Below the pieces are notes generated by a model. The model was not told the origin of the DNA. It made no database searches and saw nothing but the letters and a program-made list of their open reading frames with translations. Made by a program: the position numbers and the translations under genes. Below, piece by piece: positions 38,404-53,541 of a DNA stretch of 64,000 nucleotides. The stretch is taken from IMG/VR virus record IMGVR_UViG_3300027131_000001; one strand, given 5' to 3'. Source of the DNA: a virus. Positions within the stretch are counted from its first letter, which is position 1; every line of letters begins with the position of its first letter.

Positions 38404-38432
38404 AGTATACTATGACCAAAGTATCAAGTCAA
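38404..38432 (-). promoter_or_regulatory. Sigma70-type promoter
   Basis: TTGACT-17 nt-TATACT. Confidence 0.75.
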
Positions 38433-39112
38433 CGCTTCATTGCTTGCAAGTTAATATTTGCAAAGAATTCTTGTTTAACGCTATCATTATGGAATAGACC
38501 GTGAACAACTGATGTCTGGGTCATTGATGAATGAGCCATCACACCTCTATTATCCATACATCCGTGAGTAGCTTCAATATAGACTCCAACGTTTTCTGTA
38601 TCAGTTGACTTCATAATCTCACGTGCAATCTGGTTAACCAGTTCTTCTTGTAACTGGCCACGACGACTGCACCATTGTGCAATACGAACATACTTGGAGA
38701 GTCCAATCACACGACCAGTAGGAATAATACCAATGTAGCAAATACCCTTAACAGGCTGGTGATGATGTGAACACATTGAGCGAAGCTCAGCACGTGCAAC
38801 AAGCATTCCCTCGAACCGGTTCTCACCTTCGTTAGGGAATGATGTTGTATCGGGTGCAGGCTCAAACCTTCCGGCCATCAGCTCATAGACATACATCTTA
38901 GCAAGACGCTTTGCGGTATCTTTAGAGTTAGGATCGTTGTCTGTGTCGATAAGAAGGGAGCTAAGGACGCCTTGAAACTTACCCGCTAGCTCATTTATTA
39001 GCTCACCTTTTGCTTCCTCAGGAACATACTTAGAAATATTATCACAAGCAAAGAACCGGTGGCCATCACTCTTCATCTTATCACGAATCACATCAGACAA
39101 ATATTTACTCAT
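38429..39112 (-). CDS. folE: GTP cyclohydrolase I
   Basis: SMCSHHHQP, IGLSKY, QLQEEL, HGCMDNRG. Confidence 0.95.
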   Translation of the reverse strand: MSKYLSDVIRDKMKSDGHRFFACDNISKYVPEEAKGELINELAGKFQGVLSSLLIDTDNDPNSKDTAKRLAKMYVYELMAGRFEPAPDTTSFPNEGENRFEGMLVARAELRSMCSHHHQPVKGICYIGIIPTGRVIGLSKYVRIAQWCSRRGQLQEELVNQIAREIMKSTDTENVGVYIEATHGCMDNRGVMAHSSMTQTSVVHGLFHNDSVKQEFFANINLQAMKR

Positions 39113-39129: not shown

Positions 39130-39693
39130 TTAAACCGATGCCCACACTCTACTATGTTTAGGTATAAAGTTCAACAGAAACTTCATCTGGTCTGCTAATA
39201 TATTTCTGTTCTGCAAGACGAGTGCTTCGGCTCTATCAGGAACATACGGAATGTAACCAAGAAGCATATTAGCTTCTTCTGGTGTTCTATCGTCCTTTTT
39301 ACCGTTACATTTCTTGCAAGCTGTTACACAGTTCATCCATGAGGTTGGGCCACCTCTTGATTCTGGATGGATGTGATCTTTGGTCAACTCTGTGTCCCCA
39401 AATGTCTTAATGCAATAAGCACAGGTATGTAAGTCTCTTCTAAACAGGTTTCTGTTAGAGAAGACTGGGGTTCTTTTTTCGTATCTAAATTTTGATTTGA
39501 GAGCAATGATTGAAGAGACTTCAACCTGAGACTGTAGACCGGTCATACGAGAGATGCCACCTCTAATAGTGTACTCTTCTTCACCAAACTCCCATGCAAT
39601 TAATCCTTTGCATTTAAGCAAAACTGCATCTTGCCAGCTCATCCAATTGTTTGGATATCCGGTACTATCAAGTGTAAGGATTAAGTTTCTCAT
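39130..39693 (-). CDS. HNH endonuclease
   Basis: RDLHTCAYC...TKDHIHPESRGG...NCVTACKKCNGKK. Confidence 0.92.
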   Translation of the reverse strand: MRNLILTLDSTGYPNNWMSWQDAVLLKCKGLIAWEFGEEEYTIRGGISRMTGLQSQVEVSSIIALKSKFRYEKRTPVFSNRNLFRRDLHTCAYCIKTFGDTELTKDHIHPESRGGPTSWMNCVTACKKCNGKKDDRTPEEANMLLGYIPYVPDRAEALVLQNRNILADQMKFLLNFIPKHSRVWASV

Positions 39694-44807: not shown

Positions 44808-45118
44808 AAATTCGTGCTGATTTTATTGGCGCAGTTAAAATCAGCAAACATTCAGAGACTATTTGTGCTAGTTTAAAGTCTTGCACCGGATATTCCTCCA
44901 TTAAGACCTTTTTATTAGAATAGGCTACTTGTTTCCACACAAGCCCCTAATTGAGCAGTTACTCTGTCCATCCATTTTATTCTATATGTCTGTGTGCAGT
45001 TAGGATTCTGCCTATCAGAGTCTGCAAGGGTAGTTTCCATCCTCACGCTAACGGTCTTCTGCCACCGGATCTCTGTCGCTAATCAAACGCCATTATTAAC
45101 GAAAATGGTAACGGGATC
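44808..45118 (-). ncRNA. ~310 nt multi-stem non-coding region (candidate large ornate RNA)
   Basis: No credible ORF; stems CGTTA/TAGCG, CCATT/AATGG, GTGAGG/CCTTGC with GAAA loop, GGCT/AGCC, GCTGATTTTA/TAAAATCAGC. Confidence 0.5.
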
Positions 45119-45206
45119 TGGTGGATGATGATGGTAACGCTCCACGAACCTGACTTCCGATCTCTTGAGGTAACGGTTTTACAGACCGCCGACCGGGGCA
45201 TCATCC
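45119..45206 (-). tRNA. Atypical tRNA-Tyr(GTA)-like RNA lacking a D-arm
   Basis: 8-bp acceptor GGATGATG/CATCATCC plus ACCA; anticodon arm GGCGGT-CTGTAAA-ACCGTT; 4-bp T-stem. Confidence 0.6.
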
Positions 45207-45224: not shown

Positions 45225-45253
45225 ATTATATACAAAGACCAACCAATTGTCAA
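45225..45253 (-). promoter_or_regulatory. Consensus sigma70 promoter
   Basis: TTGACA-17 nt-TATAAT. Confidence 0.85.
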
Positions 45254-45424: not shown

Positions 45425-45640
45425 TTTGTAAGTAGTTGCCCCTCAATTATAGCAACCATTTATCCGATTAAACAAGTCCGGACGGCATGAGGTACGTCAC
45501 TTGGGCTCTGTCCAGTCAGTCACCATTACAGACCCCTGCAGTTTCCCGCAGGGTGGGAGTTGAACCCATTGACCTTTTACTACACAACGCCTTCGAAGAA
45601 CATTGACAGTAGCGTGATTTTACTTGCTGACACTTACAAA
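45425..45640 (-). ncRNA. ~216 nt structured RNA containing a T-arm mimic
   Basis: Terminal stem TTTGTAAGT/ACTTACAAA; TGGG-TTCAACT-CCCA; CCCTGCGG-GAAA-CTGCAGGG; GTTGCT/GGCAAC. Confidence 0.6.
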
Positions 45641-45803: not shown

Positions 45804-45878
45804 TGGGGAGAAGTACGGGAATCGAACCCGTGACAGCGGAATCACAACCCGCGGTTTTGCCACTAAACTAACGACTCC
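45804..45878 (-). tRNA. tRNA-His(GTG)
   Basis: Loop TT-GTG-AT, G-1:C73, CCA. Confidence 0.92.
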
Positions 45879-51253: not shown

Positions 51254-51457
51254 CTTCTTTGGTGGTTTAGGAGGGAAGTCTGGAAAAGTATTCCATGGTT
51301 GTCTGAGTTCAGGTGCTATCAGTTCTGGTCCACCCTCATCAATCCATTGCTTCGATATCACTGTTTTAGGATTACCATCAACAATGACATAACGAAGTAG
51401 ATATTCAGTGTAATCGTAGGTGCCATCAGGCACCCATGCAAATTGTTTGAAAGCCAT
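51245..51457 (-). CDS. Hypothetical protein
   Basis: Translationally coupled to queD (TAATG). Confidence 0.55.
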   Translation of the reverse strand: MAFKQFAWVPDGTYDYTEYLLRYVIVDGNPKTVISKQWIDEGGPELIAPELRQPWNTFPDFPPKPPKKLT

Positions 51458-51978
51458 TATGCAAACAAGTCCTCATTCCATTCGCGATGACCTTCTCTGA
51501 AAGCCATATTGCTTTGGGTTTCACGTACCTCTACTCTATAGCACCATAGACGTTCTGATTCACTTGGCCCCCACATATCTGGAATGTAGACACCATTAAC
51601 ATACTTGTATAGCTGATCAGCAAGACCTTCACATCCTAACTTAGGAAGAATTGTTAGCTTAGCTAGCTTTCTTTCCTGTAACTGTAGATAGAAATTAAGT
51701 TCAGGATCATCTTCTGCTACTAACAACGTATGATCAAATTGACTCTCTAGTACATTCTTCAGTTCTTTTAAACCACCATAATCAGCAGCCCAATTACGAA
51801 CATCAAGATTATCCGTACCAAAGTAAAACTTCATAGAGAAGCTGTACCCGTGAATCAAGTTACAGTGACTATCCGCTCTCCATTGTCTGTACGCACAAGG
51901 AAACGCATCGTGATATTCCTTTGTACTCACATACTTGTATTGTCTTGCTGACATCCAACGACTTGTTGTTTCATTCAT
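51457..51978 (-). CDS. queD: 6-carboxy-5,6,7,8-tetrahydropterin synthase
   Basis: SHCNLIHGY, DYGGLK, FDHTLL, GCEGLA, VRET. Confidence 0.88.
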   Translation of the reverse strand: MNETTSRWMSARQYKYVSTKEYHDAFPCAYRQWRADSHCNLIHGYSFSMKFYFGTDNLDVRNWAADYGGLKELKNVLESQFDHTLLVAEDDPELNFYLQLQERKLAKLTILPKLGCEGLADQLYKYVNGVYIPDMWGPSESERLWCYRVEVRETQSNMAFREGHREWNEDLFA

Positions 51979-51979
51979 A

Positions 51980-52834
51980 TCATGTTCCCCAGGCATTGCG
52001 CCAAATATCAACTTGTAATCGTGGGCTATATTTCCAGCCCTTCTTCATTGCCATCTCAGCAACTTGCTTATAGTTGCTAAAGTATTTGACATCTGTTCCG
52101 CCAACTGGCATCAAGTAGACATCACACTCTAATCCTAGTCCGTATTCTCTATATGCTTTGACAGCTCGTTCAACCTCTTCAATGTCTGTATCTTTATCGA
52201 TCACAAACTTGAGATACACTTGACCGTAGGTGTTGTATGTATTTACAACTTGCGGAAGGATTGCATCTTCCCAACTCTCACCAGAGGCACTCAGCTTTGC
52301 ACTAACAGAGAATGTAAACTCTGTATCACCCATACCGTACTTGTTACTGTAGTTAAATAGAAACTTCTTAAATTCATCTGTTATCTTCTGAGTACCGTTT
52401 GTCTCGAAAGTAACATACTTTAAGTTCTTCATACTTTCATGAGTCAGTAACTCCGGAAAAGCACGTTGCCATCCAAGCAATGGCTCACCACCTGTAATCA
52501 CAAGATGTTCTTTGTTCCACTTCTTCTCTGGAAGCATGTCAACAATCTTTTCTGCAATATCACCAGTTGTCATTAATGGAGATAGGTGTTTGAATCTAAC
52601 ATCCCAGCTTGCATATGAATCACATCCAGTATGTACAAGAGGTAAGTCATCATACTTCCTGTATTGTTCAGGTTGAATCTTGAACCGTTCATTTGACATC
52701 TCATCCTTTGGCATACCAAACCCACCACAGGTAAAGTTACAACCAAAAGTACGCAAGAATACACTAGGTGTACCTACATACTTTCCCTCACCCTGCAAAC
52801 TGTAGAACAGTTCTGCTATTTTAATTTTCTGCAT
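51980..52834 (-). CDS. queE: 7-carboxy-7-deazaguanine synthase (radical SAM)
   Basis: ELFYSLQGEG, RTFGCNFTC...GCDS, TGGEP, ETNGT, SPRLQ. Confidence 0.92.
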   Translation of the reverse strand: MQKIKIAELFYSLQGEGKYVGTPSVFLRTFGCNFTCGGFGMPKDEMSNERFKIQPEQYRKYDDLPLVHTGCDSYASWDVRFKHLSPLMTTGDIAEKIVDMLPEKKWNKEHLVITGGEPLLGWQRAFPELLTHESMKNLKYVTFETNGTQKITDEFKKFLFNYSNKYGMGDTEFTFSVSAKLSASGESWEDAILPQVVNTYNTYGQVYLKFVIDKDTDIEEVERAVKAYREYGLGLECDVYLMPVGGTDVKYFSNYKQVAEMAMKKGWKYSPRLQVDIWRNAWGT

Positions 52835-53339
52835 ATTCTGGTACCTTATATTCACGTTTGTATTTCTTACGCTGTCTCATTGCTTGATCATAATGAAACT
52901 TGTTAGCCTTTGATGTATAGATTATACCATCAAGATGATCCATCTCATGCTGTACACATCTCGCTGAGATTCCTGTAAACTTATCTGTATGAGCCTCGCC
53001 ATGTGAATCCATATAACGAATACGAATCAGCTTAGGACGCTTCACTTTAACGAATAAATTAGGATAAGTCAAGCATCCTTCTTCTAAAAGAATCTCTTCC
53101 GTCGATACATCAGCAATAACAGGGTTGAACATAACCTTTGTTGGATTCGACCACAGGACAAATACACGGTAAGGTAGTCCACATTGGTTTGCAGAAAGCC
53201 CCAACCCTTTATAGTGAATCATTGTCTCAATTAGGTTGTTAGCTAACTCATGAGGGTTAGTTGGTTGTTTGTTGAAGTCAAATCTCTCCAACTTTGTCCT
53301 CAATAAAGGATGATCAGGTTTAACTAAGTCTAGTACCAT
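52821..53339 (-). CDS. def: Peptide deformylase
   Basis: GLGLSANQ, EGCLT, QHEMDHLDG. Confidence 0.93.
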   Translation of the reverse strand: MVLDLVKPDHPLLRTKLERFDFNKQPTNPHELANNLIETMIHYKGLGLSANQCGLPYRVFVLWSNPTKVMFNPVIADVSTEEILLEEGCLTYPNLFVKVKRPKLIRIRYMDSHGEAHTDKFTGISARCVQHEMDHLDGIIYTSKANKFHYDQAMRQRKKYKREYKVPEYAEN

Positions 53340-53346
53340 AATATGT

Positions 53347-53541
53347 TTATTCCTTCCAGGTTTTTCCGCACGATACACATCTCTTTACATTCTCTTCAAG
53401 CATCGGTATGTCAGATGATAAAATAGTTCGTTCAGAGCTCTGTATACGAATATCACAATCGTCTCTTATGCACTTAGGACCACCATCAACATATTCAGCT
53501 AATAATGTTTTTACAGGTTTACCAGATTCGAATTGGCTCAT
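53347..53541 (-). CDS. Small Cys-containing protein
   Basis: CxxxxC...CxxC. Confidence 0.55.
   Translation of the reverse strand: MSQFESGKPVKTLLAEYVDGGPKCIRDDCDIRIQSSERTILSSDIPMLEENVKRCVSCGKTWKE

Follow-up and report, generated by a model that had tools for sequence, protein, structure and literature searches.

A family of phage tRNA-Tyr-like RNAs with the D-stem rebuilt as a pseudoknot helix

Introduction

Outside mitochondria, all tRNAs are generally assumed to fold into a cloverleaf that includes a D hairpin. In the accessible text of a 2020 review of non-canonical tRNAs, species devoid of a D hairpin are known only from mitochondria, and phages go unmentioned (PMC7609411). tRNAs with an 8/4 acceptor branch are known as allo-tRNAs, tRNA-Ser and tRNA-His in bacteria and phages, according to Mukai et al. 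(2017, PMC5389517).

Two further studies concern tRNA-Tyr as a target of antiphage defence. Retron-Eco7 and Septu PtuAB deplete tRNA-Tyr by cutting its variable-arm stem; the tRNA-Tyr of phage T5, expressed from a strong promoter, is reported to be resistant via a distinct variable loop, and phage T6 escapes with an amplified tRNA-Tyr gene (PMC13096335, PMC11555353).

Here, we analyse an 88-nt RNA gene on the minus strand (45119..45206) of a 64,000-nucleotide stretch of viral DNA, the IMG/VR record IMGVR_UViG_3300027131_000001, hereafter called the window. The gene belongs to a large family under selection, whose members retain the outer dimensions of tRNA-Tyr and its identity marks around a core wired as a pseudoknot. 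A full-text literature search returned no description of a tRNA of such shape.

Results

The 88-nt stretch was left uncalled by ARAGORN in its bacterial, mitochondrial (ARWEN) and relaxed modes, and the Rfam tRNA model RF00005 gave no match to it at E<=10. The family model R1 scored the whole RNA, a member of the subtype that we call type A, at 110.6 bits. The original prediction, made from the sequence of the window, had described an 8-bp acceptor stem, a 4-bp T stem, a non-canonical T loop and a D region of 8 nt, and the minus-strand sequence reads exactly so.

All parts of the RNA lie on the minus strand. The 5′ strand of the acceptor stem (nt 1-8, 45199..45206) pairs with its 3′ strand (nt 77-84, 45123..45130), which is followed by the discriminator A (nt 85) and the encoded CCA (nt 86-88; together 45119..45122). 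A joint of sequence CC, J1 (nt 9-10, 45197..45198), connects the acceptor stem to the D′ strand (nt 11-16, 45191..45196), which leads directly into the anticodon arm (nt 17-35, 45172..45190). This arm consists of a 5-bp stem with an outer G.U layer and the loop CUGUAAA, in which the GUA anticodon occupies 45180-45182. The D′ strand is accompanied by neither a D loop nor a 3′ D strand, and a D hairpin with G18 G19 is absent, with only 8 nt between the acceptor and anticodon stems. Helix X, the stem of the variable arm, has its 5′ strand at nt 36-39 (45168..45171) and its 3′ strand at nt 56-59 (45148..45151). Enclosed between them are the A-rich linker L2 (nt 40-44, 45163..45167), the V′ strand (nt 45-50, 45157..45162), which is the partner of the D′ strand, and L3 (nt 51-55, AAGUC, 45152..45156), a proposed stand-in for the D loop. 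After helix X, a 2-nt joint (nt 60-61, 45146-45147) precedes the T arm (nt 62-76, 45131..45145), with its 4-bp stem (nt 62-65 with nt 73-76) and 7-nt loop AGCGUUA.

Helix X follows the anticodon stem directly and is separated from the T stem by 2-3 nt, which is the location of the long variable-arm stem in class II tRNAs. The variable arm is not a free hairpin, as the loop of about 17 nt closed by this 3-4-bp stem is tied to nt 11-16. Because the V′ strand sits inside the loop of helix X and pairs with nt 11-16, the two helices cross and the core of the RNA is a pseudoknot. The D-stem is rebuilt as a 6-bp pseudoknot helix with the variable-arm loop. The RNA had been described as D-armless, which holds for the missing D hairpin but not for the D-stem, whose 6-bp equivalent is present in this form.

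Exact and degenerate pattern scans of IMG/VR and JGI metagenome contigs gave 15 distinct homologs. A scan anchored on the 5′ half reached at least 119 viral contigs, nearly all of them true members, and a scan that took the 3′ half of type A as its anchor contributed about 30 further contigs. By these pattern scans, which set a lower bound, the family extends well beyond 150 viral and metagenome contigs, some loci being the same contig in two collections. At least 85 distinct sequences were parsed from 135 instances. A loose gapped pattern gave, beyond the known members, chance matches only. The RNA was absent from 50,697 GenBank phage records searched by blastn with type A members, type B members and the window stretch, and the family model R1 found nothing but ordinary tRNAs in phages DLP6, phiM12 and Melnitz. 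Two pattern scans of bacteria, with one genome per species and patterns tuned to type A or its linker, yielded a single chance match.

Two subtypes were distinguished. Type A, which includes the window, has the joint CC, an L3 starting with AAG and the T loop AGCGUUA or UGCGUUA. Type B mostly has UU as its joint, an L3 starting with UGG or CGG and, in the same place, a canonical T loop. Carrier contigs reach 364 kb, and one was rated 100% complete. The RNA of the window and that of the 364-kb contig are about 91% identical and their capsid proteins only 35-46% identical, which points to strong constraint on the RNA or to its transfer among phages.

For the counting of base pairs, 84 distinct sequences were aligned with MAFFT and the structure was written with crossing brackets. 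Over all helices, 96.2% of the cells were paired and 19 of the 28 pairs changed on both sides; the covariation score was reached by none of 500 shuffles and slid controls were 37-58% paired. Percentages from our own script are partly circular, as the parse by which members were collected required pairing, a circularity from which the MAFFT covariation counts and the cross-sequence control described below are free. Folding energy alone was not unusual (z = -1.18).

The pairing of CCGGUC with GAUCGG (nt 11-16/45-50) had been proposed from the window alone, with covariation among homologs as its check. In the alignment, 98.4% of the cells of this helix were paired and two-sided changes occurred at four of its six pairs, a single position showing as many as five pair types. 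For helix X (nt 36-39/56-59), 96.5% of the cells were paired and all four pairs covaried. In a fixed register, helix X was perfect in 83 of 83 sequences, compared with 25% in cross-sequence controls, and ten different 3-nt cores were found, every one complementary. The strands ACCU and AGGU had originally been taken as brackets of the variable region; the two also pair with each other as this second crossing helix. Covariation of the crossing helices was already present in the subset of 15 sequences.

The remaining helices behave in the same manner. In the acceptor stem, 99% of the cells were paired, five of the eight pairs covaried, and G1:C and G8:C were present in 84/84 sequences; two acceptor-stem mismatches in the contig pair L004/L012 count against a working tRNA. 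Four pairs of the anticodon stem covaried around a CUGUAAA loop that is invariant in the members. The outer layer of this stem alternates between G.U, A.C and A:U, which fits a conserved wobble geometry like that of the 26-44 layer of ordinary tRNAs. The inner pairs of the T stem are solid (G:C in 84/84 and 79/84) and its two outer pairs weaker, with frequent U.U in type B. An alternative fold of the T region, obtained by RNAalifold from the first 15 sequences, was rejected, as divergent members break it whereas they keep the 4-bp stem. No helix contains an insertion or deletion; length changes are confined to L2, L3 and the joints, with L2 as the main indel site (2-9 nt across the family).

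A tRNA-Tyr pseudogene in decay might have been suspected in a gene left uncalled by gene finders. The five helices are nevertheless kept by compensatory changes in at least 85 distinct sequences, the RNA is present in one copy per carrier locus, and it is common to distantly related phages. Random decay among the homologs is excluded by the covariation, which leaves the pseudogene with a negligible probability and bears out the original view of a rebuilt RNA under selection.

The D′ strand enters the anticodon stem in the way the 3′ D strand of a cloverleaf does, so that nt 45-50 would replace the 5′ D strand and L3 the D loop. Within L3, G53 is invariant, as is the C at position 3 of the T loop. 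In 82 of 83 sequences, position 2 of L3 tracks position 2 of the T loop, A going together with G and G with U; this signal comes essentially from two clades. We hypothesize from this pattern that L3 probably touches the T loop in an elbow contact like G19:C56. In tRNA-Sec, contact with the T loop is still made by a D loop of 4 nt on a 6-bp D stem. Another candidate for the role of G18 G19, the GG at nt 57-58, was rejected, since the larger family places both bases in helix X.

The overall dimensions are also close to those of a tRNA. Divided 8/4, the acceptor branch has 12 bp in total, which would correspond to the usual length, and the anticodon stem together with the 6-bp helix would provide about 12 stacked layers, near the normal anticodon/D stack. 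The T loop is canonical in type B; in type A it is non-canonical, and this lack of the canonical sequence counts against a working tRNA.

The window comes from an uncultured T4-like phage, with genes for a Gp23-type capsid protein, a UvsW-like helicase and a family B polymerase. By its capsid protein, the nearest isolate is Stenotrophomonas phage DLP6 (74% identity). The minus-strand array of the window contains 26 tRNAs for 19 amino acids according to ARAGORN, Tyr being the sole one missing, in line with the initial claim that the RNA is the only Tyr decoder of the array. The perfect promoter claimed ahead of it was also recovered: a sigma-70 type promoter at 45225..45253 (-), with TTGACA as -35 element, a 17-nt spacer and TATAAT as -10 element, matches the consensus at 12/12 positions. 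The RNA starts about 18 nt past the -10 hexamer. L011 and L015, the closest relatives, have this consensus promoter as well; in other carriers, the Tyr-like RNA lies within a polycistronic tRNA run.

Several other features of the neighbourhood were recorded. On the 3′ side of the Tyr-like RNA lies a 310-nt non-coding stretch (44808-45118, minus strand), with no predicted terminator in between; it is conserved in L011 and L015 and is probably co-transcribed with the RNA from the consensus promoter. An ORF-free RNA of 216 nt (45425-45640, minus strand) is located between tRNA-Pro and tRNA-Leu in the window. The same element is found directly downstream of the Tyr-like RNA in L001, L007 and L010, and the two RNAs travel together in some arrays. 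In the tRNA-His of the window (45804-45877, minus strand), the central part of the acceptor stem is interrupted by a U.U and a C.U mismatch. Interleaved with the array are genes for GTP cyclohydrolase I, a QueD-like enzyme, a radical-SAM (QueE-like) enzyme, a peptide deformylase and an HNH endonuclease (together at 38429-39112, 51457-52011, 51980-52855, 52821-53378 and 39130-39693). Queuosine at G34 is normal for tRNA-Tyr, among other tRNAs. Many carrier arrays also hold a 92-nt tRNA with the anticodon UAU and a long variable arm, for example at L054:5203-5294 (-). Its DLP6 counterpart (KU682439.2:104738-104829) is annotated as tRNA-Ile-TAT, and this class II shape is unusual for an Ile-type anticodon.

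To place the RNA among the tRNAs of its carriers, a census of the Tyr slot was made with ARAGORN on 182 carrier loci (1.51 Mb), in which the program called no member of the family. A total of 2,176 tRNAs were called, with seven for Tyr and at least 71 for each other amino acid. Among the loci covering at least 15 amino acids, a canonical tRNA-Tyr was missing in 46 out of 46, the next most often missing tRNA being that for Phe (13 loci). Thirteen arrays, that of the window included, lacked Tyr alone. The complete 364-kb contig encodes 28 canonical tRNAs for 19 amino acids plus one CUA suppressor, with no canonical tRNA-Tyr anywhere and one copy of the Tyr-like RNA. The amber-suppressor tRNA of this contig (L055:197-272) may reflect recoding of a stop codon in the 364-kb phage. 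In the long ORFs of the window, Tyr accounts for 3.7% of the codons, more than Cys, Trp, His or Met, each of which is served by a phage tRNA.

A73, the G1:C72 pair and the GUA anticodon are established identity elements of bacterial TyrRS. The Tyr identity set (A73, G1:C72, G34 U35 A36), which had been noted as intact in the window, is invariant in 84 distinct members, the discriminator being A in 84/84, and 76 of the 83 parsed members encode their CCA. The anticodon loop keeps its 7 nt, with U33 and a purine (A37) at position 37. No phage TyrRS was found in the five carrier records or the window ORFs that were examined, so charging would have to be carried out by the host enzyme. Loci L129 (1999-2203) and L156 (1808-2012) each pair a family member devoid of an encoded CCA with a canonical tRNA-Tyr 35 nt away. 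That canonical tRNA begins with C1 and ends with G72, a pair typical of archaeal and eukaryotic Tyr identity and not of the bacterial one.

The constancy of the anticodon bears on whether the RNA is merely tRNA-shaped and has another job, such as that of a primer, of a processing signal within the array or, like species 1 and 2 of T4, of a stable RNA, with GUA as a relic. Phage tRNA arrays do contain tRNA-like RNAs with no assigned role, and an outlier of this family, at about 1431-1458 of L198, carries the L3 and T-arm module of type A together with an acceptor stem of 8 bp but no GUA anticodon arm; it may be a derived tRNA-like RNA. Against such a job, the stem of the anticodon arm covaries around an invariant loop, and of 63 distinct 3′ halves of type A, 62 carry GUA. 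Together with the statistics of the Tyr slot, this makes a role of that kind very unlikely. Other anticodons on the type A scaffold were sought by pattern scans and none was found.

The original prediction had offered a TyrRS/tRNase decoy as its second reading. The census also bears on a reading of this type, here taken as a tRNA-Tyr mimic acting outside translation: it might soak up an anticodon nuclease or a PtuAB-like (Septu/retron) defence nuclease specific for tRNA-Tyr, or bind and regulate TyrRS or a modification enzyme. Its non-canonical core, the altered T loop of type A and the RNA's own strong promoter would suit a mimic, as would the seven of the 182 carrier loci in which a canonical tRNA-Tyr is also present, so that the RNA is not always a replacement. 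A mimic would, however, leave unexplained the absence of a Tyr decoder from all 46 large arrays, as well as the retention of features required in translation (12-bp acceptor branch, anticodon branch of about 12 layers, U33, A37, A73 and CCA). It would also make poor bait, since the hairpin cut by PtuAB is the very part that has been rebuilt. In the T5 study, rescue by tRNA-Tyr needed an intact anticodon and stems, which was read as a need for protein synthesis (PMC11555353). We consider a mimic unlikely. A working tRNA is favoured over a decoy, whose standing is lowered, because the Tyr slot is filled in 46/46 large arrays, the helix lengths are those of a tRNA and the Tyr identity elements are present.

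Discussion

Taken together, these results argue that the gene is probably a working tRNA-Tyr with a rewired core, charged by the synthetase of the host. In such a tRNA, the 8-bp acceptor stem would stack on the 4-bp T stem to form a branch of 12 bp, and the anticodon stem, with its 5 bp and wobble-type layer, would stack on the 6-bp replacement of the D-stem. The RNA would be transcribed from its own strong promoter, or within the tRNA runs of other phages. RNase P presumably cuts at G1, and the host tyrosyl-tRNA synthetase presumably charges the product via G1:C72, A73 and GUA. Once charged, the RNA would read UAU and UAC for the phage.

The rebuilt region coincides with the site at which tRNA-Tyr is attacked by defence systems. 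With no ordinary variable-arm hairpin to offer, the RNA would likely benefit under cutting by Septu or retron-Eco7 PtuAB, and by analogy with phage T5 its variable region may resist nucleases that cut tRNA-Tyr. Escape from nucleases is a reasonable motive for an RNA whose variable arm is bound up with the core and which, in the window, has a consensus promoter of its own. A broader proposal, which we put forward as tentative and rather doubtful, is that a tRNA with a pseudoknot D-stem is tolerated by the RNase P, TyrRS, EF-Tu and ribosomes of bacteria, as the first such class outside mitochondria, and that the family evolved and spread in phages because nucleases like Septu and retron PtuAB could not cut it.

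If the RNA is charged and used, it would show how much of the tRNA core bacterial translation really needs. It would also explain the seeming Tyr gap in many large phage tRNA sets as a blind spot of tRNAscan-type searches, and would provide a new scaffold for engineered or orthogonal tRNAs. As tRNA-Tyr is a known target and is cut in its variable arm, the family would further serve as a test case for phages that reshape tRNAs to escape tRNA-cutting immunity.

Among known RNAs, canonical class II tRNA-Tyr, such as that of E. coli tyrT or of DLP6, has in common with this RNA the CUGUAAA loop, G1:C72, A73, CCA and a length of 85-92 nt, and in both the variable arm begins directly after the anticodon stem. 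It differs by a 7/5 instead of an 8/4 branch and by a D stem that is not made with the variable loop. The class II tRNA-Tyr of DLP6 (KU682439.2:104488-104579, or L061:1490-1581) is called by ARAGORN and is unannotated in GenBank. Its acceptor stem and the 3′ strand of its T stem nearly match those of common type A members. Compared with it, the family is about 12 nt shorter on the 5′ side (D loop and 3′ D strand) and about 10 nt longer in the variable region. These sequence matches suggest that the family descends from an ordinary phage tRNA-Tyr. A more specific origin, by a deletion fusing the D loop and the anticodon loop of a DLP6-like tRNA-Tyr, was rejected as unsupported, the anticodon stems of divergent members being unrelated.

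tRNA-Sec (RF01852) resembles the family in its 8-bp acceptor, 6-bp D and 6-bp anticodon stems and its long variable arm. A type B member scored 25.8 bits with this model, below its cut-off of 47, and the D-arm positions of the model were deleted in the alignment; the window RNA gave no match to it. The anticodon is here GUA and not UCA, and the discriminator is here A.

As far as the available sections of PMC5389517 go, the 8/4 tRNAs have in common with this RNA the 8/4 branch, a long variable arm, a longer anticodon stem and an occurrence in phage tRNA clusters. Unlike it, they retain a normal, tRNA-Sec-like D hairpin whose stem is long and whose loop is a tetraloop, and the group formed by (8/4) allo-tRNAs has Ser identity, where this RNA has A73 and GUA. 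In those sections no Tyr species is described, Tyr appearing once, in a reference, and a pseudoknot is never mentioned.

The D-armless mitochondrial tRNAs (mammalian mt tRNA-Ser(AGY) and nematode mt tRNA-Ser) function in spite of an absent D hairpin, according to the review PMC7609411. They are short and flexible, have no long variable arm and work on specialised mitoribosomes, whereas the present RNA has 88 nt and a 6-bp equivalent of the D-stem. The short connector that is unpaired in the mitochondrial type is here replaced by bases paired in the 6-bp helix. Finally, the T5-type tRNA-Tyr is a possible functional parallel, being likewise phage-encoded, altered in its variable region and driven by a strong promoter (PMC11555353, PMC13096335); unlike the RNA described here, it is a canonical cloverleaf.
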